Source: a bacterium (GTDB lineage Bacteria > UBA8248). Taken from it: a stretch of 64,000 nt of DNA. Both the position numbers and the translations under genes were made by a program. The stretch is from NCBI GenBank assembly GCA_965203325.1, contig OZ241875.1, forward strand, positions 1,600,001-1,664,000. Reading direction: 5' to 3'. The notes beneath the pieces were generated by a model. That model had not been told where the DNA came from. It ran no database searches and saw only the letters and a program-made list of their open reading frames with translations. The first letter of the stretch is position 1, and every line of letters begins with the position of its first letter. Of this stretch, positions 69 through 38,748 are shown one piece after another.

Positions 69-1208
69 CTAGGTGAAGACGATGGCTATCTCGTCATCGC
101 CCGCATCGCGCGCCAGGCGGAAGGGCGCATCGTAGGTCAACAGGCCGTCACGATCCGCGAAGCCCATATCCGCGTACTGGCATTTGGGCGCGGTGATGGT
201 GCAGATGTTCCCGGCCCTGTGGCCGACCTGCACTTTCAGGGGGAGCCTCGCGCCATCTTCCCAATCCTGGAACACGTCATCGGTGGCCTTGAGCACGGCC
301 TCGGGATCGAAAGAACCCGAGGGCGCCCGCCCCGTCACCATGGCGTTCACGTGTCCGCCCGATGCGTTGGCGCTTTGACGCAGGACCACCTCGTTGTTCA
401 TGGCGAAGCGGATGTTCGCCACGTCGAAATGGAAGCCTCCGAACGAAAAACCGCTCATGAGGACGGGTTCGGGCGTCTGCGCATCGTAGGACGCGCCCTC
501 AGGGAGGGCTGCGTCGCTCACCTCGAAATCGGCCGCCTCGAACTCCCAATCCACCGTGGGAACGCCGTCCAGGGGACAATTGATCGAAAAACTCCCCATG
601 CAGCCCAGATACATGACCCGCAAACCGTCGATGAACGCCGTCAGGCAGATTCTCGTATAGCCCGATTTATCGGATACGGGCGCATAGGCGACGGAAGCGT
701 CCTCGACAATGGTTTCCTTCATCGCGCAGGCCTTGAACAGCAATCCATAATCCGGCGCAACGCCCGCTGCGCCTGAGCCGCGCAACTCTGTGGTGAAGGA
801 GATCTGCGCGGAGCGTTTCCCGGGAATCGAGGGGAAGGGCGAGAGGCTCGCATCCTTCACCGCGCGCTCCAGCTGCTCCACGCTGACCTCGTGGGAGAAA
901 TTGCCCGCCCGGAACAGTTCCGAGGCCGCCGCCGGACGATCCAGCAGATAGGCCGTTCCTGCAGCGGGGGCGGCGTCCCAGTCGTCGTCCACCGTGAGCG
1001 CCTCCGAGGCCGCGTCGAAACCGCTCACCTTTCTCCTTTGGCCGACGCCCATTCCGCGAATCGTGCGCAGCACCGAGCCGTTCCAGAAATCATCATCCTC
1101 TGAGAGCGCGGCGTCCACCAAGGTGGAGGCGTTGGCGGAATCCGCCACCAGTTCCTTCTCTTCCGTCGCGCCGATTGTCTGCCGATCCATCAAAATCGTA
1201 TCGCCCAT
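69..1208 (-). CDS. Phage-like tail tube / major tail protein with an inserted extra domain
   Basis: 379 aa. Tube-like motifs (ISFTTELRGSGAAG..PDYGLLFKAC; G..AGNICTITAPKCQY; DRDGLLTYD). Last visible gene of the head-tail operon. Confidence 0.75.
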   Translation of the reverse strand: MGDTILMDRQTIGATEEKELVADSANASTLVDAALSEDDDFWNGSVLRTIRGMGVGQRRKVSGFDAASEALTVDDDWDAAPAAGTAYLLDRPAAASELFRAGNFSHEVSVEQLERAVKDASLSPFPSIPGKRSAQISFTTELRGSGAAGVAPDYGLLFKACAMKETIVEDASVAYAPVSDKSGYTRICLTAFIDGLRVMYLGCMGSFSINCPLDGVPTVDWEFEAADFEVSDAALPEGASYDAQTPEPVLMSGFSFGGFHFDVANIRFAMNNEVVLRQSANASGGHVNAMVTGRAPSGSFDPEAVLKATDDVFQDWEDGARLPLKVQVGHRAGNICTITAPKCQYADMGFADRDGLLTYDAPFRLARDAGDDEIAIVFT

Positions 1209-1281
1209 CCCCTGTTCTCCTCCGTCTGTTTTTAGGGGCGAAGGGGCATCCCTCGCCGGATATTGTTCCCTGATTCTCGAA

Positions 1282-1815
1282 TCAATCCCGCCGAATCCGC
1301 TCTATCGCCCGGAGCCTGATCTCGGCGTAATGGCAAAGCACGTTCCCGAATGTTCTCAGTTCAATGAGGTCCACCTGCGGAGGCTGAAGGCGCTCCAGGG
1401 AGCGGACGCGCGGGGCGCCTGATTCATCGAGGAGGCGGAGCGTCCCCTCGTCCCGGAAGCGGTCGCAAATCTCCTCGATCAGATCCTGAAAGGCCGCCTC
1501 GCTGCCCGCCGCGTCCTCGGCGCTCATGATGCCGAACAGCAAGAACGTGTGGGTTCGTCTGCTGAAGCCTGAGGGCGTGAAGCCGCCGGACGCATTCGAG
1601 CCGAGCGATGCGGCCTCCTCCCCTGCTCTCTCGCGCGTCAGCACCCAGCCCCTGATTTGGGCGAGGCCGCCGCCCGCCTCCCACCGGAACAAGTCCAGGT
1701 ATTTTCCCAGGTCGGCCGACCAGCGCTGATAGGCGTGCACCCGCCCCGCCTCCGGCAGGCTCGATATTTCCGCCAAAATGGCGTCGCCGATTTCCCTGTA
1801 TCGTGATTTAGCCAC
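1282..1815 (-). CDS. Putative tail terminator / tail completion protein
   Basis: GTG start at 1815 with GAGGAG RBS, overlapping the upstream stop. Sits between the gp10-like gene and the tube gene. Confidence 0.55.
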   Translation of the reverse strand: MAKSRYREIGDAILAEISSLPEAGRVHAYQRWSADLGKYLDLFRWEAGGGLAQIRGWVLTRERAGEEAASLGSNASGGFTPSGFSRRTHTFLLFGIMSAEDAAGSEAAFQDLIEEICDRFRDEGTLRLLDESGAPRVRSLERLQPPQVDLIELRTFGNVLCHYAEIRLRAIERIRRD

Positions 1816-2311
1816 CGACTCTCCTCGCAATCTCATCAAGCAGTTCACGAATGCGCTCATCGATTCGGCCCTGGTTATCCTCGAAGGCGCGCGCGAACAT
1901 GCGGCGCGCCGGTATCCCGTGCCGTGCGATTGATCTGGCAACGAGGAAGGACACCCTCTCGATAGACCCATCGGGCGGCCCCAGTTTGTAGGCAACCCAC
2001 CGGTACAGGGACGTACCCTCCCTCCAGGGCGGTATTCCGCCACCCGCCCGGCGTCCGAATTCCACGTACCCGGCGTAAGGGACGCGCGAGGCGACCACGC
2101 CGCGCAACACGCTTGGGTTCTCTCCCTTGATTTCGGTGAAAATGCTGCCCCTGAGGTTCCCGCTCGCGCCGACGGGCGTTCGCGCCATCACCTCGCGCCT
2201 GAGTATTCCGGTGATTTCGGCCACCGCCTCGTGCGCGAGGAGTAAAACCCCCTCCCAAGCGATCTGTGGCACCTCCGGCAAGGCATCAAGCGTTACACTT
2301 CGACGAAACAT
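1808..2311 (-). CDS. HK97 gp10-like neck / tail-completion protein
   Basis: Motifs RTPVGASGNLRGSI, PYAGYVEFG, IARHGIPARRMF. ATG at 2311 with an AGAGG RBS. Confidence 0.75.
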   Translation of the reverse strand: MFRRSVTLDALPEVPQIAWEGVLLLAHEAVAEITGILRREVMARTPVGASGNLRGSIFTEIKGENPSVLRGVVASRVPYAGYVEFGRRAGGGIPPWREGTSLYRWVAYKLGPPDGSIERVSFLVARSIARHGIPARRMFARAFEDNQGRIDERIRELLDEIARRVGG

Positions 2312-2328
2312 TCGCCTCTCCTCTTTGC

Positions 2329-3039
2329 CTAGCGGTCCTTGGATGTGCCGTGCGTGAAGTACTCGCCGCGCGCCAGGGAGAGGAGCGCGTCCCAATCGAG
2401 AGACGCGCCCGCCGGACCCGCCACTTCGCCTTCCTTGCGGCCGAGATGGTTCTGGTATTTGCGCTCGAGTTCCCGGCCCAGGCGCGTGTACTCTCCAGAC
2501 TTGCTCTGGTAGTCCACCGAATCCGCCGCGAGGGTCGGGTTCGAGGACTGGGCGAAGCGGCGGGCCAGAAGGTGACAGCCCTCCGCGGCGGCCAGCCAGG
2601 CCACGGCGGTCAGATCGTTTTCGGGAACGCTCGTGCGCGCATCATCGGCCGTGTGCTTGATCGTGTAGAACAGGCGTAGCGTGTGGCCCATTTGAGGGAC
2701 GAAGTACATGAGCCTGAACCTCGCCGCCGGGGTTCCTTTCGCATAGATGATCCAGGCGCTCCTCCGCAGGTAGGAGGGCTTTCTCTCCCCCTGGGGATAT
2801 TCCACCTCCCGGATGAAGGAGAGGGAATCGTCCCAGTCCTCGGGCAGGGGGAAATCGAACGTCTCGCTATCGCCCGCATAATCGGCGAACGAGACGAGCG
2901 GCCTGTCCTTGCTGTAGCGCGTGAGGGCCGCGTTCACCAGATCGGCGTAGTCCGCCTCCTCGACCCCGAACTCACGGGGCAGCCCGCCCGCCTTCAACAG
3001 CACCTTCACCTCCTTGATGATCGTCTGCCTGCCGGCCAT
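2329..3039 (-). CDS. Putative phage head-tail adaptor/connector
   Basis: 236 aa, GGAGA RBS, downstream of the capsid gene. Assignment rests mainly on synteny. Confidence 0.55.
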   Translation of the reverse strand: MAGRQTIIKEVKVLLKAGGLPREFGVEEADYADLVNAALTRYSKDRPLVSFADYAGDSETFDFPLPEDWDDSLSFIREVEYPQGERKPSYLRRSAWIIYAKGTPAARFRLMYFVPQMGHTLRLFYTIKHTADDARTSVPENDLTAVAWLAAAEGCHLLARRFAQSSNPTLAADSVDYQSKSGEYTRLGRELERKYQNHLGRKEGEVAGPAGASLDWDALLSLARGEYFTHGTSKDR

Positions 3040-3082
3040 TTCTCCATTTCTCCTTTGCCTCGCTCACCCGATGCGGGTGGTC

Positions 3083-3424
3083 TCAAGTCTTGAGCGTGAG
3101 CTTGGCCTCGAACGTGAACGAAGCCCCCTCCCCGCCGACGGACCATGCGAGCCTCAGCCAAGGGCCGATGTTCGCGAGCTTGACGAGGGTTTTTCCAACC
3201 GAGGTGATTTCCGCGGATTCGGTATGGACGAAAGCCGCTTCATCGCCCGCCGGACCGGTCTGCACTTCGAAATCAAGCACCGGCGCGACGCCCGATACCG
3301 ACGTCACGTCGATGAACAAGAGCGCCTCGGTGAAGCGGCTCACCTCGAACGCCGTACTGCCTCCCGCGGCGACGCGGGCCGCGGGAGGAGCGAGAACGAT
3401 GGTGTGGGTTCGCCTGTCGGACAT
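3083..3424 (-). CDS. Small beta-rich virion protein (possible capsid decoration/cement)
   Basis: ATG at 3424 with AGGAG RBS, immediately downstream of the capsid gene. Confidence 0.45.
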   Translation of the reverse strand: MSDRRTHTIVLAPPAARVAAGGSTAFEVSRFTEALLFIDVTSVSGVAPVLDFEVQTGPAGDEAAFVHTESAEITSVGKTLVKLANIGPWLRLAWSVGGEGASFTFEAKLTLKT

Positions 3425-3456
3425 GGCTTCTCCTCTGAAGGGCAAACGCCGCGCGA

Positions 3457-5535
3457 CTACTCGGGCGCGCCGCGATAGAAGCCGCGGAAGTCCAACACGG
3501 CGCCGCCGTAGACGTGTCTGATCTTGTAGCGAATCTTGTCCGCGCTGAACCCGCTGCCGGCGGCGGGGTTGTCCTCGATGAACAGCTCGGGCTCGCGCAT
3601 GTCGTCCATGAAGCCGATCTCGATGGTGTCCATGAGGCCGGGGTCGGCGACCATGTACCAGTCGTTCGCGTCGGCGAGTTCGGGCACCCACAAGGGCTCC
3701 ACGCCCAGGCGGTTAATGACGCTCGGCTGCGTGGAATTTCCGCCCTCGACGACCTTGACGGGCGACTGGGTGACCTCGAACGCCTCTTCGAGCAACGCCG
3801 TGGGGTGGGCGAGGTATTTGGGCCGCGCCTGCGCCGCCACCTCGACGCCCTCTTCCCCGTAAAACGTCTGCTCGCCCATCGCCTTGATGGCGGCGACGGC
3901 GTTCTCGTACGTGAGCGCGTTCGTGGAGGTGTTCTTGTGGTTCGCGTGGAACAGCCCCTCCCCGTCGTAGATGTCCGCGTTGGACGCCAGGAAATCGAAC
4001 ACGAAGCCGTTCAGGGTGCGCTGGGCCGCGCGGGCGAGGCGCTGGGGGATCATGCGGATCGCGCCCATGTCGTCGTTCTGGATCATCTCCCAGGTGAGGT
4101 CTTCCACGCCGCCGCGCTTGGCAACGGCGTACGTCACCTCCTCATCCGTCGGGGAGGTAAGCGCCGGATAGGCGGCCTGCTCGGCGACCGTCTGCAGATC
4201 GCCGTAACCGCCGACGCGCACCCGGCGGTTCGTGCGGAAATCCTTGACGGGCGCTATGGAGGAGACGATCTTCTTCCACTGGTGGAACCGCTCGTCCCTG
4301 AAATCGCGCAGCATGGCGCGGCGGATCGAATCCCCGAACGCCTCGCCCCACGTGCTCGTCTGCAAGGAGGCGGAGAGGCGGCGCACGCCGTTCCAGTCCT
4401 CGGCGGCGCGGTGGTAGTGGAACGTCTCGGCGAAGAACTGGCGCGGGGTGAGGCGATGACCCGTGAAATCCTGAAACGCCTCGCTCATGAAGCGGTAGGG
4501 CCGCTCGCCGTCGAGGGCCTCCTCGCGCGAACTCCAAAGCCCGTCGAGAGCCGCCCGCTTGCGGTCCGCCTCGTCGCGCATCACCTCGGCACTCGCGCCG
4601 AAACCACGAAGCGCGCCGCTCGCCGTGAGTTTTTCCAGCGTGGCCGCCTCGACCCGGATCGCCTCTTCGATTTCCTCTTCCGTAAAGCTTCCCTCGGCGA
4701 ACCGGTCGCGCATCTTCTCCTGAACGGCTTCGGGAAGTGCCGAGGCCGTGAGTTTCCGGGCGAGCATTCCGTGGGCAGCAGCCCCGGCTTCGGTTCCATC
4801 TTCCATGGCCTTTTCTCCTTTCTTCCTCAGGTCCAGTTCGAGGCCCGCGTCTTCACAGGCCGCGAAGAACTCTTGCGGCGTCCAGGCATCGCCGAGCTTC
4901 TTGCCCGATTCGGGCGCCACGCTTTTGAGTTTCTTTCCGAGTTTCTCGAACATCTTCACCTCCGATTGAGTGGAATGATTGGCGGCGAGACCCAGAATCC
5001 CGCCCCCGAGCTTGCCTTTGTGAACGACATCGACGGAGTGGACCGCCAGAATCTTTTCGAAATGCAAAACGAACGCGTCAGCTTCCTCGCGGAACTCCGC
5101 CTGCGCGAGCACGTCGAAGGAAAAGCCAAAAGGCTCCTCGAGGCCCCGGGCCAGCGCATCGTGCGCCAGCGCCTGGAACCAGGCCGCGGAGCGCGATACC
5201 GCAAACGTGCTCAAAAGCCCCTCCTCGCCCATGCGGACTTCGCGGTGCCAGCCGACCAGGTTCTTGATGTCGGGGCCGCTCGACCCGGTATGGTTCGCAA
5301 AGGCCTGCGCGCCCTCGAACAGGGGAGCGGCCTCGCGCAGAACGTCGCGGGGCAGGAACCACTCCCCGTCCCTCGAGTAGCCGGCCCGCGCGATCAGAAC
5401 GTCGAAATCCCAGGCTTCGCCCGGCGGCTGCGCTTCTTTCGCAGCCGCGCGAATGAGGTGGCCATGCAGCCTTAAAGTATGAGAATCCTTCTGCGCCTCC
5501 GCGCGCGCCCAAATGCGGTTCATCCATTTTTTCAA
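3457..5535 (-). CDS. Fused prohead protease/scaffold-major capsid protein (Mu gpT-like C-terminal part)
   Basis: 692 aa, TTG start with AAAGGAG RBS. N-terminal protease-like region (ANH..., VHSVDVV). C-terminal capsid motifs (EMIQNDDMGAI, WYMVAD, IRYKIRHVYGGAVLDFRGFYR). Confidence 0.85.
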   Translation of the reverse strand: MKKWMNRIWARAEAQKDSHTLRLHGHLIRAAAKEAQPPGEAWDFDVLIARAGYSRDGEWFLPRDVLREAAPLFEGAQAFANHTGSSGPDIKNLVGWHREVRMGEEGLLSTFAVSRSAAWFQALAHDALARGLEEPFGFSFDVLAQAEFREEADAFVLHFEKILAVHSVDVVHKGKLGGGILGLAANHSTQSEVKMFEKLGKKLKSVAPESGKKLGDAWTPQEFFAACEDAGLELDLRKKGEKAMEDGTEAGAAAHGMLARKLTASALPEAVQEKMRDRFAEGSFTEEEIEEAIRVEAATLEKLTASGALRGFGASAEVMRDEADRKRAALDGLWSSREEALDGERPYRFMSEAFQDFTGHRLTPRQFFAETFHYHRAAEDWNGVRRLSASLQTSTWGEAFGDSIRRAMLRDFRDERFHQWKKIVSSIAPVKDFRTNRRVRVGGYGDLQTVAEQAAYPALTSPTDEEVTYAVAKRGGVEDLTWEMIQNDDMGAIRMIPQRLARAAQRTLNGFVFDFLASNADIYDGEGLFHANHKNTSTNALTYENAVAAIKAMGEQTFYGEEGVEVAAQARPKYLAHPTALLEEAFEVTQSPVKVVEGGNSTQPSVINRLGVEPLWVPELADANDWYMVADPGLMDTIEIGFMDDMREPELFIEDNPAAGSGFSADKIRYKIRHVYGGAVLDFRGFYRGAPE

Positions 5536-5631
5536 GAGAAACTCCTTTCTCGCTGTTCTTCCAGAAATTCGATTTCCGGCGAGGGGCCGGAGACCGCCGC
5601 CCGGTGAAACAGGGGCGGGCGCAACGGCGAC

Positions 5632-5684
5632 AATCTAGGACAAGGAGTCTCGAAGGCGGGCCGCGCAAATGCGGGGAAATGCGC
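5632..5684 (-). promoter_or_regulatory. Activator-dependent 'late' promoter 1 (capsid/tail operon)
   Basis: 19-bp core at 5665-5683. -10 TAGATT at 5637-5632, 27-nt gap. Confidence 0.8.
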
Positions 5685-5893
5685 ATTTGGCGTCTTTTTA
5701 TGCGGAATTTTGAATTTGCTAATTGAAAAATTTAAGAAAATGCGGTAAATTACGGAAAATTCTGGAGTTGCGGACGATGCGGGTGGTCCCGGCGTCTAAA
5801 AATTCTGGATACTTCGCCCGCCACCCAGTAAATGCCTGAATTCGCCGCGCCAAAAAGACCGCCCCTTGCACAACACGGACGAGGTTTGATCTC

Positions 5894-15637: not shown

Positions 15638-16993
15638 CTACCCCTCCAGGTTCATGCCGAACTGCCCCGCGAGGTGGGTGATGAGCTTGCCTGCGGCGTC
15701 ATCGCTCATCCAGCCGCGCGCGGTGGCCGTTTCGAGCGCCGTGCTAACGCGCAAAAGCGCCTCGGACATCTTCTCGGTGTCGCGCACGGAGATATCCGGC
15801 AGAACGGGCGAGACGCCCGAGCGCAGCGCCTCCTCGGGCAGCGCGCCCGCGCGATGGGCTTCTTCGAGCTGCTTCTCAGCCATAGCTTGCAAGATATGGC
15901 GCACGGTGCGCTGGCGGCGCGTCATCTTCTTCAAGGTGGGCTGATCCATCGACTCGGCCGACGCGCGGTTCACGTCCTCCCCCTGGGCGAACCAGTGGGA
16001 AGGAACGCCTACGCCGCCGAGCAGCAGGCCCCGCATCATCTTGGCGACCCCCTGCGCGCCGGACTCGCCTCCTTTCAAGTCGGGCGAGACGGCCCGCCAC
16101 TCCTCTTTTTCGTTGTGAACGCGCACGCTCGAGGGCTTGGGCGCGACGCCGTTCTCGGCGAGCCACTCGGCTATCTTGTCGGGGCCGGCGCCTTTCAAGG
16201 TGACGTCGTAGATGAAGCTGTTCTGCAGGCGCGCGCGCTCCACGGCATCGAAGATGAAGCGCTCATAGGTATCTATCCAGTCGATGGCGGCGAGCAAGTC
16301 CGAAGCCCCGCGCGCGGCGTCGCTCGCCTTGTTGATCTGGAACAGGAACGCCTCTCCGTCCGTGAAGCGCTCGCGCTCCCGCCGGGCGGAGGCGCTCAGA
16401 TAACCGCGCGGGTCGCCGCCCAAGACCGTCTTGATTCGCTTGCCCTTGCGCGCCGCACCGCCCGGCTCCCGGGCGCGCAGGACGACCCCTATCGGCAGGG
16501 CGCAGTTGTCCGGGTCCGTCACCACCTCTTCGATCAGGCGGGGGCTGACGTAGCCCAGCCGGACGCGCCCCTCGAAGCGCGAGACGGCGACGGGCAGCAA
16601 GAGTTCGCCGAATATGCCGAGTTCAGAGACCAGCCGCTCGAAGCGGATGTCCATCTGGTTCACGGGGTCGGCCCAGAACGCCTTCACGGCGTTTAATGCG
16701 CGCTCATCCTCCCCGTGCCAGCTCACCCCCTCGCCCACGACGTGATCCGTCACGATCTCGATGAGGCGCTGGCCCATGAGGTTCGTGAGCCATAATTCAT
16801 ACGCTAAAGCCTGCATGCGCGCGTGGGTGTAGGGAGACACCCCGCTCCGCCCCTCGCCGAGGGGCCGCCAGATTTTCTCGTCCGGATCGATCGCCGCGCT
16901 CGTTCGCCCGGTACGCTGCGCGGCCTCCCCTTTTCTCTTGAGTTCCGTCTTCCGCCCGGGAACCTTCACCCTCTTTGCACTCTCCATTCTCAT
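15638..16993 (-). CDS. Phage portal protein
   Basis: 451 aa, coupled (ATGA overlap) to the terminase nuclease gene. Portal-like features (IFGE, RGASDL, GVPSHWF..EDVNRASA). Confidence 0.8.
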   Translation of the reverse strand: MRMESAKRVKVPGRKTELKRKGEAAQRTGRTSAAIDPDEKIWRPLGEGRSGVSPYTHARMQALAYELWLTNLMGQRLIEIVTDHVVGEGVSWHGEDERALNAVKAFWADPVNQMDIRFERLVSELGIFGELLLPVAVSRFEGRVRLGYVSPRLIEEVVTDPDNCALPIGVVLRAREPGGAARKGKRIKTVLGGDPRGYLSASARRERERFTDGEAFLFQINKASDAARGASDLLAAIDWIDTYERFIFDAVERARLQNSFIYDVTLKGAGPDKIAEWLAENGVAPKPSSVRVHNEKEEWRAVSPDLKGGESGAQGVAKMMRGLLLGGVGVPSHWFAQGEDVNRASAESMDQPTLKKMTRRQRTVRHILQAMAEKQLEEAHRAGALPEEALRSGVSPVLPDISVRDTEKMSEALLRVSTALETATARGWMSDDAAGKLITHLAGQFGMNLEG

Positions 16994-17637
16994 CTCCTCT
17001 TGAGCATCCGTTTGTTAAAAGCCTGCGGCGTCACCGTTCCCCCGGCGATGGGGGCCAGCATGCCCTCGCTCTGCGCCAGGGATTCGGCCAGCCGCGCATA
17101 GGCGCAGGCGAAGCCGAAGTGGTTCTCGTTTCGCTCATACGCCAGCACCGTCTCCCCGGTGGAGCGGATGCGCGGCCTTTTCCTCAAATTCATCAGGTGG
17201 CGCTCCACCTCGGCGAGTAGCGCCTCCTCCCCGGTGTCCCTGGGACTCGGCAGCAGGACCCGCCCGGCCCCCTCGTGAAACTCCTCCACGAGGTGATCGA
17301 GCAGGTCCTCTCGGTTCATCCGCACGTGGCGGCGCTCGACGCCCAGGAACGAGACGTCCCTGGTCTGCATCTCCCCCTCGGTGTGCCGCCAGATGAAGCC
17401 GCCCTCGGGGTTCAGGTCGTAGACCGCGCGCGCTGCCTGGGTGTGGGGGCCGCCGTCTATGACGAACGCTTCCACCCCGAGACCCGAGAACACGGCGCGG
17501 CACCGCTCGATGAGGCGCTCTATCGGCGGCGCCTCGAAATAAATCCACCTGGCGGGCCGGCCCTCCTCGCGCTCGCGCACCGCGAGGGCGCAGCGGTCGC
17601 CCGTATCGATTCCACAGAAGCGATAGTTCGCGCTCAT
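16990..17637 (-). CDS. Terminase large subunit, nuclease (RNase H-like) domain as a separate gene
   Basis: CGIDTG, VIDGGP, NHFGFACAY. Own GGAGG RBS; ATGA overlap with the ATPase gene. Confidence 0.75.
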   Translation of the reverse strand: MSANYRFCGIDTGDRCALAVREREEGRPARWIYFEAPPIERLIERCRAVFSGLGVEAFVIDGGPHTQAARAVYDLNPEGGFIWRHTEGEMQTRDVSFLGVERRHVRMNREDLLDHLVEEFHEGAGRVLLPSPRDTGEEALLAEVERHLMNLRKRPRIRSTGETVLAYERNENHFGFACAYARLAESLAQSEGMLAPIAGGTVTPQAFNKRMLKRR

Positions 17638-18740: not shown

Positions 18741-18793
18741 AATATAGGGGATGGGGCCTGTGAGCCATGACGCGCAAATGCGGGGAAATGCGC
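18741..18793 (-). promoter_or_regulatory. Activator-dependent 'late' promoter 2 (terminase-portal operon)
   Basis: 18771-18793 is identical (23/23) to 5662-5684. -10 TATATT at 18746-18741, 27-nt gap to the core at 18774. Confidence 0.85.
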
Positions 18794-30538: not shown

Positions 30539-32287
30539 TTATGCATTCTGCGGAATCACCGGCAGCAACACGTGCGATGGACACGACGGGCCGGTGTGGA
30601 GCGTCACCTTTCCGCCGAAGAGTTCCGTCGGCCTGTCCTCTTTCAAATCGTGCTTGAACGGCCCCACACCGTAGTAGACGCGGCCCGATATTTTGGGGGC
30701 GGAAGGCTCATAACCGGGCCAGACGTAATCGCGCCCCCGGACGCTGATCGCCAGGCGGTATTCCCTGGGGATGACGATGGAGGTCGGCCAGATCTCCACG
30801 TCGAGTTCGTATATCTCGCCGGGCGTGAGCGGCTGAATCTCGTCATGCGTGTGGTAGGGCCGGTAGGGCAGTGTGAGGGCCTCATCGAGTTTCCGGTGCG
30901 AGGCCCTGAGCCACCCGATGGCCACGGGCGTGTGCGGGTCGTTCGCGCCCCGGTAGACGATCTCCGTCATGTCCGGCGTGAAAACGCGCAAGGTAAGAAA
31001 CAGATCCGCATCCTCGGTATCCGAGGAGATGAACATTTTGGCCGCTACGGGGCCGGTGATCTCGGTTTCCTCGGCGAAAGGCGGCGAGATGTAGATCAAG
31101 CCGTCGCCCAGGGCGTCATAGGTTTTCGTCCGCTCGTTGCCCTGAGGTTCGGGCCGGAATGTGCCCGTGCCCGAATGGAGGTAATACTTCGTCCAGTTCG
31201 TGCGCGCGAGGGGCCACTCGTTCTCCGCGCGCGGCACGAATTTCTCGCCCGGATGCCGCACCAGGAGCTGAACTTTCGGCTGCTCCGCCCAGCCGGTGTC
31301 CTCACCCTTCAGGAAATGGCCGAAAAATTTCTTCTGGAGCGCTACGCCGTAATCGGTGTAAAACTCCGTGAAATGCTCCAGCCCGTGCATCTCCAGCCAT
31401 TTCTCCTCGGTGGCCGATTGCACGAAGCCCTCCGTGTTGCCCCTGGGGTGCAGGCCCACGCCGCCCCAGTTGCCCGAGGAAAGAAGAGGCACGTTGATTT
31501 TCGAATAATCGGGCATGCGCTCTTTCCAGTAATCATCCACGAGGGGGTGATCCAGAATATCCTGCCCGAAATCGCTCCGGTTAGAAGCGAGTTCCTCTTC
31601 GCTCAGGTTGGCGGGTCCTGAAATCCAGTCGCCGTTGATGCGGCTCTTGAAGCCGCGGTGGCCCTTGCCGTGCTGGCGGGGGACGACGGCTTCGCGGTAC
31701 CAGGTCTCGGAAAACCGGCAGGCGATGCCCCCGTGGTGGGCCAAGTCGCGGTAGAAATCGGCTGCCCCCTCCCAGACGCACATGGCCGCCAGGTGCGGCG
31801 GCTGGAGCGAGGCCACCTGCCACTGGTTCATCCCGTAGTAGGAGATGCCATTCAGACCCACCTTACCGTTGCTCCAGGGCTGCACGCCCGCCCACTCGAT
31901 GCAGTCGTAAAAATCCCTGGTCTCGCGCGGCGACCACACTTCCAGATAGCCCGGCGAGCGGCCCGCGCCGCGTGAATCCACGCGCACGCAGGCGTAGCCG
32001 TCGGGCACCCATTTCTCGGGGTCCACGAGCTCCCAATTCTGGTATTTGTTGGTGGTGCCCATGACGGTCTCGGGATAGTCGTTCACCATGAGATTCCACT
32101 GGTGGGGGTAGCCGTCCTGTAAGTGAAGCCATTTGCAGTAGGGGCCGTAGCTCATGATGACGGGGTATTCGCCGTCGTCATCGGGCCGGTAGACGTCGCA
32201 GCGCAGCACCACGCCGTCGTCCATCTCGATGGGCACGTCCCAGTCGACCCGCATCCCGTCTCTTGCCTCGCTCTTGTACTCGCTCAT
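30539..32287 (-). CDS. CocE/NonD family hydrolase, tandem paralog
   Basis: Same motifs as 28766-30511. Confidence 0.9.
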   Translation of the reverse strand: MSEYKSEARDGMRVDWDVPIEMDDGVVLRCDVYRPDDDGEYPVIMSYGPYCKWLHLQDGYPHQWNLMVNDYPETVMGTTNKYQNWELVDPEKWVPDGYACVRVDSRGAGRSPGYLEVWSPRETRDFYDCIEWAGVQPWSNGKVGLNGISYYGMNQWQVASLQPPHLAAMCVWEGAADFYRDLAHHGGIACRFSETWYREAVVPRQHGKGHRGFKSRINGDWISGPANLSEEELASNRSDFGQDILDHPLVDDYWKERMPDYSKINVPLLSSGNWGGVGLHPRGNTEGFVQSATEEKWLEMHGLEHFTEFYTDYGVALQKKFFGHFLKGEDTGWAEQPKVQLLVRHPGEKFVPRAENEWPLARTNWTKYYLHSGTGTFRPEPQGNERTKTYDALGDGLIYISPPFAEETEITGPVAAKMFISSDTEDADLFLTLRVFTPDMTEIVYRGANDPHTPVAIGWLRASHRKLDEALTLPYRPYHTHDEIQPLTPGEIYELDVEIWPTSIVIPREYRLAISVRGRDYVWPGYEPSAPKISGRVYYGVGPFKHDLKEDRPTELFGGKVTLHTGPSCPSHVLLPVIPQNA

Positions 32288-32509
32288 GTTTCGCCTTTCC
32301 GTGAAGAAGTGGATCACCGTCGGTGATGTATTTGGGGATGAGGGGAATATAACCGAGGGGAGGGGGTGAGTCCAGATGGGGAGGGTAATCGAAAAAACGA
32401 CCTTATTTCGGAAGGTGCTTCAGGGCTGCCGCAATCTCAGACGTTTGGACGGTTTTGCTCAATTGAAGGCGTCGGTGGAGGGTGAGTTAGCGGCTATCTC
32501 GAAAGAGCA

Positions 32510-32827
32510 TTACGTCCTATTGTCATTTATGTCAGGTTCAATATTTTGTTCATCTTCTGACATATCCACTTCCTCAATATAATCAGAGCGACCTACACTG
32601 CAACCTACTATATCTCGGAATACTTTAGTGGATACTCCCAATTGCTTCGCCATACGATCTTGCAAATAGTCATTAATGTCCTGATTGTTGTGCGACATGA
32701 ACGTCTCACCAATTAACCTATCCTCATCATATACACGGTAATATATATGATGGCCGGCCTCATCAACTTCACATTTTAACTTGTTTCGCAATGCTCTTTT
32801 GACTTCACGCGCTTTGTAAGTGGGCAT
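32510..32827 (-). CDS. HicA-like small protein
   Basis: Helix, GHH-containing strands and MAKQLG helix pattern; AT-rich insert. Confidence 0.5.
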   Translation of the reverse strand: MPTYKAREVKRALRNKLKCEVDEAGHHIYYRVYDEDRLIGETFMSHNNQDINDYLQDRMAKQLGVSTKVFRDIVGCSVGRSDYIEEVDMSEDEQNIEPDINDNRT

Positions 32828-32837
32828 TCGGGGTGGA

Positions 32838-33200
32838 CTACCAATTTACAGTAACAGTCTGATGAAACAGAACATCAAGACGTAGCTTGCGTTTCTCCAT
32901 ATGTTTAGAGAGTCTTTTCGCAGAATGAAGGGCCTTCCATGATGCTTTCAGTGCTTCAAAGAGCGAAACCATAGCTTCATCAGGTGTCGAACCTTCCCCA
33001 TGATGCGGCAAATCCGGTTCCATCAACATATCGGCAAAATATCTTCCGTCCATCTCGTGTGTCTGAACAAAAATCGGGATTCCTTCATAGGATTCTGCTT
33101 GTTGTTCAACTGGGGCGTAAGCAACTAATGAGGAACTCACTAATGTAGGATTACCACCATATGAGGTGTTATCTACAGTATCAAGTAATGTGGTATTCAT
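32838..33200 (-). CDS. HicB-like protein
   Basis: Y.A....PDLP..GEG.TPDEA motif; AT-rich insert. Confidence 0.55.
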   Translation of the reverse strand: MNTTLLDTVDNTSYGGNPTLVSSSLVAYAPVEQQAESYEGIPIFVQTHEMDGRYFADMLMEPDLPHHGEGSTPDEAMVSLFEALKASWKALHSAKRLSKHMEKRKLRLDVLFHQTVTVNW

Positions 33201-33225
33201 TTCGTCATATACTCTTTTATGTATG

Positions 33226-33477
33226 TTATTCAGATTCCAGCACTGTTATGATAGTTCCACTTCTCACATTGTAAATTGGATTTCCATCCAATCCACGCTC
33301 ACCTTTGAATTTAGCAACTTCAACTACATCCACTTTTATTCGCAATACAGTCCCATCAGCAAGCCTGATTTTCATCGGCTTCTCAATGATCTCTTCTATC
33401 TCAACCATCTCAACATCATGCATTTCACCTGTTGTTGGATGTTTCATTTTTCGCTCTACCATAACTAACCTTTTCAT
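33226..33477 (-). CDS. Hypothetical protein
   Basis: 83 aa (L.DGTVLRIK...G.PIY.V); first gene of the AT-rich insert. Confidence 0.6.
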   Translation of the reverse strand: MKRLVMVERKMKHPTTGEMHDVEMVEIEEIIEKPMKIRLADGTVLRIKVDVVEVAKFKGERGLDGNPIYNVRSGTIITVLESE

Positions 33478-33735
33478 TTATTTTGAAGTAGGGATTTCCT
33501 TGTTGAACACTCAAAAATAGCATTATCTATCTGTTGCGATATTGCCAGGATCGATTGAACAACAATCTTCGCCAACCACCTAAGTAATCGGAAGCCTGTC
33601 GGAACTCTCCCTTTAGTATGAGCATGGATGCGAGTAGCACCTCAAACAACCATACCCTATCTCATAAATCGCAATATTTCGCCATATCCTGCCATACATT
33701 GCGAAAATCTCAACCAGTCCGGAATAAGCCTCCTC

Positions 33736-34311
33736 TCACTCGATCCTTTCCTCGAGCTTCCGCGTCGCCGCCTCGACGATTTCGCACACCTTTTCCATCA
33801 CCTCGGGGTGCGCGCGGAACGACTCGCGCACTTCCTTGACGATCGCCATCTTGGCGGCGGCGAAGCCGTCCTGGTATTCGAGCTTGAGTTTCTCGGCCGA
33901 TATACGGCTGCGCTCCAGCCCGTTCACCATCTGGGCGAGTTTCTCGGGCGTCAGGCCCTCGAAGGATTCCTTCCCCATCTGCGAGACGGCCTCGACCGCC
34001 TGGGTCATCAGCATCCGCCGCGCGGCCGCCGCTACCTTCTCGCCCGGGTCCCTGCCCTCGCCGTCATAGGCCATGACTTCTTCGATCAGCTCATCCACCA
34101 TGGCTTCCACCCGCCTGGTCTTGCGGATGCCTTCCAGCAGGCGGTTGTTGCGCGCCCCGATGGAGCCGAGCCCTATCTTCTCCCCGGTGGCCTTCTCGAA
34201 GGCCTCGGCCACCTCCTTATAAGTCTTTCCCTCGGCGAGCATGGGGTCGACGACTTTCTCGGCCCCGTATTCCACCACCTTCGACCTGCGCCCCCGCCTC
34301 CTCTCCATCAC
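33736..34311 (-). CDS. Mu gp27/DUF3486-like protein, putative small terminase
   Basis: RGRRSKV start, HTH-like TYKEVAE..IGLGSIG, helical C-terminus; coupled to the gp26-like gene. Confidence 0.65.
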   Translation of the reverse strand: MMERRRGRRSKVVEYGAEKVVDPMLAEGKTYKEVAEAFEKATGEKIGLGSIGARNNRLLEGIRKTRRVEAMVDELIEEVMAYDGEGRDPGEKVAAAARRMLMTQAVEAVSQMGKESFEGLTPEKLAQMVNGLERSRISAEKLKLEYQDGFAAAKMAIVKEVRESFRAHPEVMEKVCEIVEAATRKLEERIE

Positions 34312-34640
34312 AACTCTCCCACGAGGATGTCGGGCGAAGCGGAAACGGCGCCTTCGAGCAGGCCGCGCCCCTTGCGGGTCAGGTGCGCCTCGTAATCCGT
34401 CAGCAGGCGGCCGAAACCGCCCGGGGTGCGCTTTTCCAAAAAGCCCCGCCCGGCCAGATCGTCCACGAAGGCCTCGAGCGTCTCGCGGCCCAAGGGCGCG
34501 CCGTCCTCATGGTGGCCCGCCTCGCGCAGCGCGCTCCACAGCAGAAGGCTGCCCACGCTCGATTCCGCGCGCAAGGCATCCTGGTAATACAGCGTCTTCA
34601 ATATGTCGCCGCGCAGGACGCGGGCCGTCAGTTCATTCAC
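34308..34640 (-). CDS. Mu gp26-like winged-helix protein
   Basis: LRGDILKTLY...L..RGFL...LTRKGRGLLEG pattern. GTG start with GGAGGTG RBS. Confidence 0.6.
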   Translation of the reverse strand: MNELTARVLRGDILKTLYYQDALRAESSVGSLLLWSALREAGHHEDGAPLGRETLEAFVDDLAGRGFLEKRTPGGFGRLLTDYEAHLTRKGRGLLEGAVSASPDILVGEL

Positions 34641-34642
34641 GA

Positions 34643-34747: not shown

Positions 34748-34784
34748 AAACGCCAATCACCCCGCGTGAGGCGGAAACTCTCTC

Positions 34785-34836
34785 AATATAGAATGCGGCT
34801 GCATCTCCGGCAGACCGGCAAATGCGGGGAAATGCG
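34785..34836 (-). promoter_or_regulatory. Activator-dependent 'late' promoter 3 (gp26/gp27-like operon)
   Basis: Core at 34818-34836 is 19/19 identical. -10 TATATT at 34790-34785, 27-nt gap. Confidence 0.85.
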
Positions 34837-34869
34837 GGCGCGTTGAGAAAATAATTTCCGGGTTGCACA

Positions 34870-35570: not shown

Positions 35571-35594
35571 AAGCCCTCCCCGCGCAAAACTCCC

Positions 35595-36017
35595 TCACTT
35601 CGCCTTTCCCGTGAGCTTCTCGACGGTGCGAAACGCGCCCAGACCCAGCATCCCCAGGGTGAGTTCGAGTAGCCCGTCCGCCGAGACGGGATAGGGCGCG
35701 AGTTCGCCGCTCATCAGCACCTGCCGCGTCCAGAGCCATGCGCCGAGGGCATACTGGGGGATGAAATAGAACGCCAGCGAGACGCCGCAGATCCACAGGA
35801 TGAACGGCCTGCCGCCTGCGACGAAGACGCTGCGGTGGGCGGCTTCGATTTTGTTGATCTCGTTCTGGGCTTCGGCGGGGCGCATCATCAGCTTTTGTTT
35901 TATCGCCTCCGCCGCGCGCCGCTCGTCCGGCGTCTCGACGAACCTGTCGATGACGTTGGCGACGCCCTCGGCCGCCGATACGACGCCGCCGCCGATGAGC
36001 TTTTCCAAAAAGGCCAT
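35595..36017 (-). CDS. Holin, 3TM 'gene-transfer release' type
   Basis: INKIEAAHRSVFVAGGRPFILWICG...LLELTLGMLGLGAFRTVEKL. ATG overlaps the lysozyme stop. Confidence 0.8.
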   Translation of the reverse strand: MAFLEKLIGGGVVSAAEGVANVIDRFVETPDERRAAEAIKQKLMMRPAEAQNEINKIEAAHRSVFVAGGRPFILWICGVSLAFYFIPQYALGAWLWTRQVLMSGELAPYPVSADGLLELTLGMLGLGAFRTVEKLTGKAK

Positions 36018-36430
36018 CACGCGCTCCTCATGCGCTCGGCGACCCGGCCCGCCCGGGCGGGGAGTTCCCGCGCGTAAACTGAATCGAGCGCCTCCCCGGC
36101 CGCTTCTGCGTAATCCCCTGCCGCGAGCGCGGCCCACATCTTCTGAAAGCCCAGAAGACTCGGCACACCCATGTTGTAGGCCATGTTCAGGACCGCTCGC
36201 TTCGCAGCCGGTTTGAGACCCCCGTAAACCTCGCCCACACGGGAGCGCTCCAGTTCTCCGGCCATCAGGTCGAGACGATGCCGGAGGAGCAGTTCGGCCT
36301 CGGCTTCCGATATGCCGTCTTCGAGCAGCGTTCCGTAGCCGATGGTCTTCTTGCCCTTGCTATCCAGATACACCACCGGCACGAAACCCTCCTCGCGCTT
36401 GATCTCCGCTACGAGTTCGTCCGTGAGCAT
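36017..36430 (-). CDS. Phage lysozyme/endolysin (GH24-like)
   Basis: EEG....YLD..G..TIGYG catalytic E-D-T pattern, NMAYNMG. Confidence 0.9.
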   Translation of the reverse strand: MLTDELVAEIKREEGFVPVVYLDSKGKKTIGYGTLLEDGISEAEAELLLRHRLDLMAGELERSRVGEVYGGLKPAAKRAVLNMAYNMGVPSLLGFQKMWAALAAGDYAEAAGEALDSVYARELPARAGRVAERMRSA

Positions 36431-36648
36431 CCCCTGCCCTCCCCTTCAAGCAGGTTCCCTGCCCCGGCCGCTTCTCCCAGCAGGCGCACGAGCGCCGCCG
36501 CGCCCTTGCGCGCGCCCGTGCGGCCCGCATAGGCCTGGCTCGACGCCAGCACCCGTCCGTTCCTCGCCCGCACCCGGAAGCGATGACGCCCGGATTTGTC
36601 CCGGAAAATCTCGACGGGACGATATTTCGAGTTCTTTACGGCCAGCAT
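36409..36648 (-). CDS. YegP/DUF1508-like small protein
   Basis: EIFRDKSGRHRFRVRARNGRVLASSQAY. Confidence 0.7.
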   Translation of the reverse strand: MLAVKNSKYRPVEIFRDKSGRHRFRVRARNGRVLASSQAYAGRTGARKGAAALVRLLGEAAGAGNLLEGEGRGCSRTNS

Positions 36649-36785
36649 ACGACGCCCCCCAGAAAAAAACCCAACAGCACCAGACCCGCGCCCGCGGCGA
36701 CGAGGCGCAAGGCGGTGTGCTTCTTGTTCGCCCAGCGCCACAATGCGGCGTCCGTTCTTCTTTCGAATTCATTTTTCCCGGTCAT
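36636..36785 (-). CDS. 49-aa single-TM protein heading the lysis cassette (below the ORF-track cutoff)
   Basis: GAGGAG RBS; MTGKNEFERRTDAALWRWANKKHTALRLVAAGAGLVLLGFFLGGVVCWP. Confidence 0.65.
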   Translation of the reverse strand: MTGKNEFERRTDAALWRWANKKHTALRLVAAGAGLVLLGFFLGGVVCWP

Positions 36786-36853
36786 GACTCTCCTCACATT
36801 CTGTTAGCGAAATCCCGCGCGCCGCGCTTAAGCGATGCGCTTCGACGCAAGAG

Positions 36854-36916
36854 ATTCTAGGCCTTGATCCCGCCGGGCCGTTGACGGAAAATGCGGGCAA
36901 CTGCGGGGTGATGCGC
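36854..36916 (-). promoter_or_regulatory. Activator-dependent 'late' promoter 4 (lysis cassette)
   Basis: Core at 36887-36905 matches 16/19 and has a third TGCG unit. -10 TAGAAT at 36859-36854, 27-nt gap. Confidence 0.75.
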
Positions 36917-37065
36917 TCTCACCCGTCCGCGAGGGGAAAAAAGCGCATCCCCCCGCGCCGGACGCGCCCGCTCGACCGCTTCGTTCGCGACGCGCGAGGG
37001 GCGTTTCATCCGCCAGGAAGACGACGCGCCAAGGGGCGCATGCCGCCAAGCACAGGAGATGAACC

Positions 37066-37554: not shown

Positions 37555-37605
37555 GCCTGCGCTGCTCAAGAAACGTCATTCGCCTTCATCCAAGAAAGGC
37601 GTCTC

Positions 37606-38004
37606 ATGAAGAAGCGGATCTGCGCAGGCGTGGCGTTCATGTTCTTCGTATCAGGTTGCGCGGGTGTTGGACCGAACCCGGTGGCGCGCTACACGCCTGC
37701 GGATGAGAAGCGCAGTTGCGTCTCGCTCAAGGCGGAAATAAAAGCCAACAGGAAGGGCATCGCCAAAAAGACGCTTGAGCGGACGAACAAGACGCACAAG
37801 AACCTCATCCTCGGCGCTTCCGGTGTGTTCCTCATCGCGCCGTGGTTTTACATGGACCTGAAGGGCAAGGAAGCAGTCGAGACCGAAGCGCTAGAGCGCC
37901 GAAACGCCGCACTTCGCCGCATCGCCTTCGACAAGGGCTGCAACGCGCCGCTACCCATCGTCACGCATCAGAGAAAGCCGAGAACGGGAGAGAAAACGAA
38001 ATAG
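37606..38004 (+). CDS. Hypothetical lipoprotein
   Basis: VSGC lipobox. Confidence 0.65.
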   Translation: MKKRICAGVAFMFFVSGCAGVGPNPVARYTPADEKRSCVSLKAEIKANRKGIAKKTLERTNKTHKNLILGASGVFLIAPWFYMDLKGKEAVETEALERRNAALRRIAFDKGCNAPLPIVTHQRKPRTGEKTK

Positions 38005-38006
38005 AT

Positions 38007-38033
38007 GTAGGGGCGGTCGCGAACCGCCCCTAC
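38007..38033. repeat. GTAG-type REP palindrome
   Basis: GTAGGGGCGGTCGCGAACCGCCCCTAC. Confidence 0.75.
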
Positions 38034-38122
38034 AGGAGAAATCGACGCCTCATCCGCTTGCACTCTCCGATAATGTATGCCACTCGAAATCGCAATCCCT
38101 TCTTGAGCAGTCGGGGTTGACC

Positions 38123-38503
38123 CTACTCCCGCATACCGCCGAATTTCCATTCGAGATCGTGCGGGAAATCCTCCGTCATCTTCTCGACGTAGGCGAGCAC
38201 GTCCTCACGGCGGAAGCGCGCGCTCTTGAAGGAGGGGTGGCCTTCGGGCTGTCTGGCGCCCGCGCGCGGGGGCGGGCGGCGCAGGTAGACGGGGCGGAGG
38301 CAGGGCGCGTCGCTCGCGCAGTCCTCGGCGATGATGGCGTCGAGCGTGCGGTAGCTCTTATAACCCAACACCCTGGCGAGCATGGGCTTGGTGAGAAACG
38401 CCTCTTCCTCGAGAATCCGGCGCGGCGTTCTCGGATCGAGCGGGGCCCGTTTCGTTCTCCTCGCGCGCCTCTTGCTCCCCCGGGTATTCTTCGGCGGCGT
38501 CAT
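38123..38503 (-). CDS. Xis/AlpA/HTH_17-like DNA-binding protein, candidate activator
   Basis: FLTKPMLARVLG.KS.RTL helix pair and RFRREDVLAYVE wing/terminal helix. Confidence 0.6.
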   Translation of the reverse strand: MTPPKNTRGSKRRARRTKRAPLDPRTPRRILEEEAFLTKPMLARVLGYKSYRTLDAIIAEDCASDAPCLRPVYLRRPPPRAGARQPEGHPSFKSARFRREDVLAYVEKMTEDFPHDLEWKFGGMRE

Positions 38504-38748
38504 CAGCGAAGCGCCTCGGCGAGCGGGAGGAGTACAAGGTCGCGGCGGCGGGTTCTCTTCATCCTGATGAGGGCGTCGGCGCGGGCGCGGGCGGATTCCA
38601 TGTTCGGGAAGATGAGGCTCACGCGCCTCTCCCGGGAGCGGTCGCGGTAGACGAGCAGCGCAGCCTTTTCGGGGACGCCGAATCCCTCCTCCACCAGATC
38701 GGAGAGACCGCGCTCATGGGTTCCGATGAAAGAAGCGGTTTCGTTCAT
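38503..38748 (-). CDS. Hypothetical protein coupled to the HTH gene
   Basis: GGAGGAGG RBS; TGATG overlap with the downstream gene. Confidence 0.6.
   Translation of the reverse strand: MNETASFIGTHERGLSDLVEEGFGVPEKAALLVYRDRSRERRVSLIFPNMESARARADALIRMKRTRRRDLVLLPLAEALR

Follow-up and report, generated by a model that had tools for sequence, protein, structure and literature searches.

Why should the genes for a phage particle lie in five short pieces, separated by ordinary host genes, along one stretch of a bacterial chromosome? The stretch in question, hereafter "the window", is 64,000 nucleotides long and comprises positions 1,600,001-1,664,000 of G000, the single-contig, 4.39-Mb genome (60.4% GC) of an uncultured, sponge-associated bacterium. 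A first-pass annotation of the window had proposed a dispersed, phage-derived gene transfer agent (GTA). Here, we describe the gene content, inheritance, and control of this system in G000 and in the ~20 sister species that carry it, and we weigh the explanations that have been considered for it. Most probably, the genes encode an independently domesticated, multi-locus, DNA-packaging particle derived from a Mu-like siphophage, i.e., a GTA-like "viriform" owned by the lineage. As such, the system is a strong candidate for a new, independently evolved GTA. It consists of ~27 genes at six or more chromosomal sites, five of them in the window. The genes encode TerS, a two-piece TerL, a portal, a protease-capsid, neck and tube proteins, a chaperone pair, a tape measure, tail-tip proteins, a holin, and an endolysin; by their predicted functions, they cover a DNA-filled particle with a non-contractile tail, together with lysis. 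No transposase, integrase, repressor, or replication gene is linked to them at the modules. Purifying selection acts on the set, which passes down with the chromosome and, where lost, disappears as a whole.

Open reading frames (ORFs) in the window were mapped with guidance from the GC content of third codon positions (GC3) and were scanned against Pfam and PHROG profiles. The phage genes form five modules, A to E, all on the minus strand, with open frames, and interleaved with host genes. In these respects the first-pass annotation was accurate, and the coupled stop and start codons that it reported can be read directly as ATGA, GTGA, and TGATG overlaps. The gaps between the window modules hold 10-15 kb of host genes, i.e., genes for CdaA (cdaA), a dehydrogenase, two luciferase-like monooxygenases (LLMs), AmtB (amtB), an adenylate cyclase, an ABC transporter, an M24 peptidase, and two CocE-like S15 peptidases. 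The modules have a GC content of 0.64-0.67, compared with 0.615 for the whole window, and their GC3 is host-like. No integrase, transposase, or replication family was matched anywhere in the window. The host genes in the gaps, the host-like composition, and the lack of mobility and replication genes had all been recognized before. Other labels survived in part: TerL and portal are both present in module B, but TerL is split into two ORFs; module C does contain a gp27-like TerS (PF11985, phrog_426), but the "gp26-like" label of its other ORF was given from position only, this 110-aa ORF having no family match in Pfam or PHROG; and the "helix-turn-helix regulator" of module E corresponds to two small coupled ORFs, but the helix-turn-helix is a weak fold match, with no match in Pfam or PHROG.

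The rest of the tail was located by scanning the genome for the promoter motif shared by the late modules (see below). A sixth module, 486 kb distant from the window set, consists of seven coupled ORFs (G000 1,106,777-1,113,634) behind the same late promoter, at G000 1106773. These ORFs have no Pfam match. The last of them, R559, matches three PHROG tape-measure families (best phrog_1535, E 1.8e-8), and in L083 its homologue stands in the canonical order capsid, neck, tube, chaperones, R559, R407. The tape-measure family PF10145 has no match in G000, and the gene was identified via PHROGs and synteny; the protein has no PDB sequence match. G027 and G032 have prophage-like clusters in which the tube and tape-measure genes precede homologues of R407 and R403. 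For the R407 model (mean predicted local distance difference test score, pLDDT, 56), Foldseek returned only generic beta-sandwiches of the discoidin or carbohydrate-binding-module type, with low template-modelling scores; R403 resembles TipJ/Phage-tail_3 clusters by language-model features, which we treat as a lead only. With the remote module included, the virion gene set is complete, its tail-distal part lying 486 kb away. The first-pass annotation had pointed to the rest of the genome as the place to look for tape-measure and tail genes, and for linked mobility genes; a search of the genome with proteins of the Mu-like relative gave no transposase or MuB homologue.

The distance between the remote module and the capsid gene varies among relatives. 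The two are contiguous, with the tube gene, in G027, G032, L081, and L083, and they lie 0.26-2.4 Mb apart in nine other genomes that have capsid and R403 on one contig. Remnants of R403 and R177 beside cdaA in G023 suggest that the original place of the tail-tip genes was after module A and that only the genus of G000 has relocated them. With loci spread over hundreds of kilobases, the particles could not carry the system itself, and their cargo would be mostly other host DNA. Viral contigs with related capsids reach at most ~70 kb. That one headful would not hold all loci follows from this dispersal (486 kb in G000; 0.26-2.4 Mb elsewhere) and not from a measured head size.

How has such a scattered set been maintained? 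We sampled species across the genus and searched one genome per species. Of 22 other species, the same 20 have a single, stop-free copy of each of the genes for the capsid, the TerL ATPase half, TerS, and R403, at 66-96% identity; the two remaining species, G008 and G009, lack all four. Host and module order is fully conserved in all five relatives that were mapped in full, and the capsid gene adjoins cdaA, the dehydrogenase gene, and the LLM pair in 15 of 15 further loci from the genus. The host content of the gaps varies among relatives, including a 118-kb insertion in G010. Lineages with 61-73% capsid identity have the same layout. Pairwise Nei-Gojobori estimates of the ratio of nonsynonymous to synonymous substitution rates (dN/dS), made against G010 and G020, are 0.09-0.25 in 12 of the 14 genes for structure, packaging, and lysis (Table 1). 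The neighboring host genes have dN/dS of 0.02-0.18, and their dS, 0.2-0.45, is in the same range as that of the module genes. In maximum-likelihood trees of 16 genomes, 10 of 13 splits are common to the phage partition (capsid, tube, and the ORF at 2329) and the host partition (cdaA, the dehydrogenase gene, LLM1, and LLM2). The system is inherited vertically and has co-diversified with its host, as seen in synteny, dS, and shared splits. The first-pass annotation had proposed orthologous modules, vertical phylogeny, dN/dS below 1, and variable intervening genes as tests, and these came out in its favor.

Loss and decay do occur. G009 lies inside the genus (host proteins 84-92% identical to those of G000) and has a collinear host backbone from which each of the five window modules was removed by its own deletion. 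The scars are residues 410-450 of the portal with a copy of the promoter motif before amtB, residues 2-26 of TerS, fragments of the DUF1508 and membrane-peptide ORFs, and 232 bp at the site of the regulator pair; the remote module is also gone. G008 has the same host backbone without any trace of the modules. In G023, from another genus, the portal, TerL, and R403 genes are frameshifted at homologous sites, and in L088 the capsid gene is truncated onto the end of R403. The first-pass annotation had held that lost or pseudogenized modules in close relatives would refute its proposal; such genomes exist as a minority, beside the 20 of 22 species with intact modules. Scattered remains of a dead prophage, drifting to loss and intact only through youth, would be lost or broken in just such a way as in G008, G009, G023, and L088, and would also agree with the two genes at dN/dS ~1 and with the split of TerL. 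Youth is hard to reconcile with the absence of stops from 20 of 22 species at 66-96% identity in their host proteins, with dN/dS of 0.09-0.25 at dS of up to 0.9, with conserved promoter elements and translational coupling, or with the recurrence of the layout at only 61-73% capsid identity. We consider a dead prophage very improbable.

The probable kind of ancestor is represented in a genome of the same class. In G027, homologues of the portal, capsid, neck, tube, tape measure, R407, and R403 lie in one block, which also holds a DDE transposase, a MuB-like ATPase, Dam, an amidase, and a MuF-like gene. With these latter genes, the block in G027 is a true Mu-like transposable prophage. Between this state and that of G000 lie contiguous or nearly contiguous versions (G032, L081, and L083) and versions in which host genes already stand between portal and capsid (L089 and L079). 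The modules of G000, read in the order E-D-C-B-A, follow the order of the G027 prophage; both the Mu-like late-gene order and the splitting of an ancestral prophage by host genes, as first suggested, are supported by these relatives. In IMG/VR, the capsid family is common, with contigs of mostly 34-70 kb, and the best identity is only 42%; judged by that match, a close free-virus relative is absent.

Could the modules instead belong to an ordinary Mu-like prophage that is still mobile, or could their layout be an assembly artefact? The capsid genes of G027 sit in a true Mu-like prophage and are related to those studied here, and all of the genomes are metagenome assemblies. Against mobility, the transposase and the MuB-like protein (AAA_22) of G027 have no tblastn match in G000, and the host gene order is the same in species without modules. 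Against an artefact, the layout of G000, whose 4.39 Mb form a single contig, is found again in at least 16 further assemblies, so the assembly chimera that the first-pass annotation had named as a danger is not seen. Either possibility is, in our judgment, scarcely credible.

Table 1. Features of the system in and beside the window. Positions are those of the window unless a G000 coordinate is given; dN/dS values are against G010 and G020.
Module	Feature	Position	Strand	dN/dS	Matches and remarks
A	Chaperone-like ORF pair, overlapping	G000:C1:1599331-1599910	-		Just outside the window, downstream of tube; pair also follows tube in L081, L083, L075
A	Tail tube, 379 aa	69..1208	-	0.09-0.10	PF18906 E 9.7e-12; phrog_290 E 2e-20; last module A gene in the window
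A	Neck/tail-junction protein, conserved	1282..2043	-	0.22-0.32	No family match in Pfam or PHROG; homologues at same position in G032 and G027; true start near 1800, frame in use only from ~1755 downwards by third-position substitution phase
A	HK97 gp10-like tail-completion/Neck1 protein	1808..2395	-	~0.9-1.3	PF04883 E 5.3e-6; phrog_5 E 1.1e-15; rapid evolution; frame verified by substitution phase
A	Head-tail region protein, conserved, 236 aa	2329..3039	-	0.09-0.12	No family match in Pfam or PHROG; homologues come after capsid gene in G032 and G027
A	Small rapidly evolving protein after capsid gene	3083..3691	-	>=1	True coding part ~3083-3450 by substitution phase; relatives align as one piece only downstream of capsid stop
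A	Fused maturation protease/scaffold/major capsid, 692 aa	3457..5535	-	0.15-0.20	PF25209 E 4.3e-44; phrog_29592 E 2e-130; also phrog_4523 "major head and protease protein"
A	Putative late promoter	5632..5682	-		GCATTTCCCCGCATTTGC at 5665-5682, 27-nt spacer, TAGATT at 5632-5637
B	Portal, 451 aa	15638..16993	-	0.10-0.12	phrog_10963 E 3.9e-46; joined to preceding ORF by ATGA overlap
B	TerL nuclease half, 215 aa, own ORF	16990..17637	-	0.17-0.18	phrog_675 positions 360-550, E 4.5e-12
B	TerL gpA-type ATPase half, 352 aa	17634..18692	-	0.21-0.25	PF05876 (GpA_ATPase) E 4.5e-20; phrog_675 positions 26-345
B	Putative late promoter	18741..18791	-		GCATTTCCCCGCATTTGC at 18774-18791, 27-nt spacer, TATATT
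C	TerS, Mu gp27-like, 191 aa	33736..34311	-	0.10-0.13	PF11985 E 1.3e-6 (29.4 bits vs cut-off of 28); phrog_426 E 3.5e-9
C	110-aa ORF, conserved	34308..34640	-	0.20	GTGA-coupled to TerS; 82-95% identical in G006, G010, G019, G020
C	Putative late promoter	34785..34835	-		GCATTTCCCCGCATTTGC, 27-nt spacer, TATATT
D	Holin, 140 aa from ATG at 36017	35595..36017	-	0.09-0.11	PF11351 GTA_holin_3TM E 5.5e-11; phrog_3427 E 6.7e-24
D	Endolysin (phage lysozyme), 137 aa	36017..36430	-	0.17-0.19	PF00959 E 2e-11; phrog_7 E 2.9e-21
D	DUF1508 protein	36409-36741	-		PF07411 E 2.1e-8; conserved in G010, G020
D	53-aa membrane peptide	36636-36797	-		Head of lysis module; conserved in G010, G020
D	Putative late promoter	36854..36904	-		GCAGTTGCCCGCATTTTC, 27-nt spacer, TAGAAT
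E	reg126, 126 aa, conserved	38123..38503	-	0.08-0.25	Candidate DNA-binding activator; weak Xis/BldC-like winged-helix fold
E	reg87, 87 aa	38503..38766	-	0.34-0.38	TGATG-coupled to reg126; no family match in Pfam or PHROG; 62-83% identical in four relatives
E	Sigma-70-consensus promoter-like site TTGACA-N17-TATATT	39064..39092	-		In AT-rich island upstream of reg87; putative promoter

The packaging genes have an architecture of their own (Table 1). The two TerL ORFs are translationally coupled via an ATGA overlap, and the split is retained in every lineage genome examined (G001, G006, G010, G019, and G020). The closest TerL relatives outside the lineage, at 37-47% identity, are single proteins of 505-600 aa. 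Beside the intact TerS gene in G004, G014, and G016 are short extra C-terminal TerS fragments (residues ~118-191, 86-93% identical), 1-2 kb away, which look like small local duplications or remnants.

These packaging genes bear on another explanation, namely that a domesticated particle has no role in gene transfer, and is either a PBSX-like killer that packages DNA incidentally or a device for lysis and release in the sponge symbiosis. Such a particle would leave the same genomic evidence as a GTA, and the computed results do not separate transfer from killing or other uses; the tail-tip proteins have no recognizable family that would indicate a target. By contrast, purifying selection acts on TerS, both TerL halves, and the portal no less strongly than on the capsid, which argues that DNA packaging itself is maintained. 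PBSX-type elements are contiguous and contractile-tailed; the tail here consists of tube, chaperone, and tape measure, with no match to a contractile sheath among the ORFs scanned. A particle without a transfer role is, on this evidence, unlikely.

If the dispersed genes are to form one particle, their expression has to be considered together. The late modules share the element GCATTT(C/G)CCCGCATTT(G/C)C-N27-TAnnnT. The exact 18-mer GCATTTCCCCGCATTTGC precedes modules A, B, and C, and a variant with two mismatches, GCAGTTGCCCGCATTTTC, precedes module D. The 27-nt spacers of modules A-D are otherwise unrelated, and each is followed by TA(G/T)A(T/A)T. Across six genomes, the motif, the exact 27-nt spacer, and TAnnnT were found together in 23 of the 26 regions examined upstream of late modules (6/6 each for modules A, B, and D, 2/2 for the remote module, and 3/6 for module C). 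In lineages at 61-70% capsid identity, the portal, capsid, and tail-tip genes are preceded by variants with this spacing (e.g., GAATTTCCCCGAATTTCC). Since variant motifs also occur inside the still-contiguous cluster of L081, the modules appear to have had their own promoters before they were scattered.

Control of module E is predicted to differ: the late motif precedes it in none of five genomes, and a sigma-70-type site lies upstream instead (Table 1). The first-pass annotation had given every fragment the same promoter, which holds for modules A, B, and C exactly and for D as a variant, but not for E, and the motif proved to occur genome-wide. Its further proposal, multi-locus control by "one activator", is not supported as written. 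What module E offers is a pair of candidates, reg87 and reg126, linked to the system by their place at the head of the phage-order series, by their lack of the late motif, and by their deletion in G009. For reg126, 32 homologues were found, none with a Pfam domain, and its core is strongly conserved; the few that are named carry the labels Nitrospinota, Nitrospinae, Tectomicrobia, or plain "bacterium". The predicted model of reg126 (pLDDT 68) has a helix-turn-helix followed by a beta-wing, and its best fold matches, to Pukovnik Xis, RdfS, and BldC, are non-significant (E >=0.36). BldC-type proteins bind direct repeats head to tail. We infer that reg126, were it a binder of that type, would suit the tandem 10-bp repeat of the late promoter.

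Taken together, these features suggest how the particle might be made. A signal would switch on module E from its sigma-70-type promoter, and the reg87/reg126 pair would form an activator. By binding the tandem GCATTT repeats (about -57 to -40 in each late promoter), this activator would turn on all modules together. Next, TerS and the two-piece TerL would package any available chromosomal DNA into heads by a headful mechanism, and tails would be assembled on the tape measure. Finally, the holin and endolysin would burst the producer cell, and the particles would be released.

Several observations weigh against a domesticated, functional, GTA-like particle under shared control. First, every genome in the comparison is metagenome-assembled. 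Second, individual parts of the system are irregular: a TerL in halves might be impaired, G003 has its TerS in two pieces, and the 110-aa ORF of module C was not detected in G001. Third, two small head-tail genes (1808-2395 and 3083-3450) have dN/dS ~1, compared with 0.1-0.25 for their neighbors, which could mean that parts at the surface or neck are under positive selection or under relaxed constraint. Fourth, an approximately unbiased test rejects strict congruence of the host and phage topologies (p ~1e-4). As a control, two host partitions were tested against each other, and the mutual rejection was no weaker (log-likelihood difference, delta lnL, 115-133, versus 68-86 for capsid against host), and we attribute the discordance to regional recombination, not to a separate phage history. 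Fifth, the module C motif is absent in G006, G001, and G019, and the candidate activator is assigned by co-loss, position, and a weak fold match (E 0.36). Sixth, the motif is not specific to the modules, with ~77 other sites in G000.

The genome-wide distribution of the motif is of interest in itself. With up to two mismatches allowed, G000 has 82 sites, compared with none for five scrambled 18-mers. Of these sites, 51 fall in three families of ~350-bp repeats (25, 14, and 12 copies), in which motif copies are inverted and face each other across an AT-rich core with GAATTTAT or CGATAAA words. Examples are found at G000:C1:1929600-1930100, 2246500-2247000, and 3163350-3163850, with copies at ~50 other places. 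No conserved ORF was found in the three families, and the repeats look like promoter-carrying miniature inverted-repeat transposable elements (MITEs). Two AT-rich stretches of the window, at 5700-5800 and 38940-39000, are similar to this core. Genes downstream of the other, single-copy motif sites encode ordinary host enzymes. A role as a promoter of tRNA or other stable RNA genes was rejected, with none of 120 sites lying <=400 nt upstream of the 56 tRNA/tmRNA genes.

Relatives that have the particle genes contain 34, 45, and 90 motif sites, and those that have lost them contain 0 and 7. When 20 motif loci of G010 were compared with G000, four were collinear within ~2 kb, with motifs there too; for eight, the flanks lie 138 kb to 3 Mb apart in G000, i.e., at synteny breakpoints, a count made without a random-locus control; the remainder were partial or ambiguous. 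The remote module is itself bounded by motif elements, at 1,106,773 and 1,113,635. A doubtful but possible explanation is that the late-promoter element escaped onto MITE-like repeats and wired dozens of host loci to the particle activator, and that recombination between the repeats scattered the ancestral cluster; the repeats might also serve as dispersed packaging-initiation sites. It is similarly tentative that the repeats depend on the system, having nearly vanished from the two species that lost it.

Some individual motif sites, and some neighbors of the modules, deserve mention in their own right. Two tandem tyrosine integrase genes with Arm-DNA-binding domains (L018, G000:C1:971200-975000) lie directly downstream of motif sites 971275 and 971420, remote from the particle modules. 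An ORF behind a triple GCATTT repeat (L021:36-1229, i.e., G000:C1:1297036-1298229; a similar context is seen at 1264341) is free of internal stops in G010, G006, and G001 but interrupted by them in the particle-less G008 and G009; it scores as a doubtful gene. Another ORF, L030:82-2145, was considered as tracking the system and was rejected: it is found in 5/5 genomes searched, with internal stops in G009, G010, and G001. Beyond the tube gene of module A there is only the chaperone-like pair, followed by a complete-looking F420 biosynthesis cluster (L001, G000:C1:1592000-1599000) with genes for a CofG/H-like radical SAM protein, an FrhB-like protein, a nitroreductase, CofD, CofC, and CofE. To the right of module E lies the glutamate synthase locus gltBD (window 40263-46263). 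Just downstream of module C, on the minus strand, are a HicA-like toxin ORF and an adjacent 120-aa ORF (window 32510-33200), in a low-GC stretch (32000-34000, GC 0.48). The HicA-like ORF matches PF07927 below the cut-off (E 5.8e-4) and also phrog_353, and the 120-aa ORF has a homologue in G008.

To our knowledge, only a handful of independently evolved GTAs have been recognized. If our preferred reading of a lineage-owned, DNA-packaging particle is true, the system adds a GTA from a different phage stock, the Mu-like siphophages, and from an uncultured, sponge-associated lineage. Related genomes span contiguous ancestors, half-split intermediates, the scattered form, coordinated loss, and decaying remnants, and the steps from virus to host organelle would be directly readable in that comparative record. 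A defined promoter element and a candidate activator are supplied as testable handles, and the conserved two-piece TerL and promoter-bearing repeats are further oddities. The system also suggests that populations of sponge symbionts may exchange DNA by capsid. Our literature search found no GTA report from Nitrospinota or Tectomicrobia and, among the matches listed, none from sponge symbionts other than Alphaproteobacteria; the one match for Nitrospinota was a metagenome study of a desert salt pan.

How does the system compare with those already known? As stated in a classification paper (PMC9662315), GTAs are viriforms whose caudoviricete-derived proteins form tailed particles that mostly encapsidate random host DNA, and the packaged DNA is delivered to other cells. 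In the same paper, the GTA genome is described as fully endogenized, often multi-locus, and not fully packageable into one particle, with mostly vertical inheritance and host co-diversification; three GTAs with an established genetic basis are treated there (PMC9662315). As far as sequences can tell, caudoviricete-derived proteins, multi-locus endogenization, and vertical inheritance are all found in the system described here.

RcGTA (Rhodogtaviriformidae) is a close parallel in organization, being a phage-derived head-tail particle encoded at several chromosomal loci (its multi-locus nature is noted in PMC9662315). The holin described here belongs to the same Pfam family, PF11351; no other RcGTA-specific Pfam family was matched, in agreement with the initial impression that the gene mix is unlike the RcGTA head-tail cluster. 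RcGTA, too, has lysis genes apart from the structural cluster and co-ordinated control, and it is inherited vertically, with lineage-specific losses. The two systems differ in their apparently independent origins, with a PF25209 protease-capsid fusion, a Mu gp27-like TerS, and a split, gpA-type TerL here; in their hosts, labelled Nitrospinota/Tectomicrobia here and not Alphaproteobacteria; and in their control, which involves CtrA/GafA in RcGTA and a GCATTT direct-repeat promoter here. Moreover, even head and packaging genes are separated by host genes in the present system. RcGTA structures are present in PDB; the capsid described here has no sequence match to a PDB chain at E <=0.01.

The likeness to Mu-like transposable siphophages, as represented by G027, is one of gene order and homology. 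In both, the late order runs regulator, lysis, small ORF, gp27-like TerS, TerL, portal, protease/capsid, neck, tube, tape measure, and tail tip, and the homologous capsid, portal, neck, R407, and R403 proteins share 28-38% identity. The late-gene order of Mu itself is similar, and Mu-like transposable siphophages include the Pseudomonas B3/D3112 type. Unlike these phages, the present system has no transposase, MuB, repressor, Dam, or MuF-like gene, and its cluster is non-contiguous and fixed in the chromosome. Its TerL is also of another type, and tblastn gives no match between it and those of G027 and G032. Judged by gene content, the system is neither a member of the RcGTA family nor a Mu-like prophage.

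BaGTA of Bartonella and BhGTA/VSH-1 of Brachyspira are recognized, independently exapted GTAs, and the BhGTA "genome" is described in PMC9662315 as likely dispersed across multiple loci. They resemble the present system as independent domestications of tailed phages and differ from it in their unrelated gene families and hosts; their packaging of host DNA is experimentally proven, whereas the evidence here comes from genes. Bobay et al. (2014) reportedly described domesticated defective prophages under purifying selection. Domesticated prophages have been reviewed (PMC8987985). Such elements share with the present system vertically inherited, immobilized phage genes kept by selection; the system described here differs in having a full virion, packaging, and lysis set, distributed over six or more loci, with a conserved promoter class of its own.

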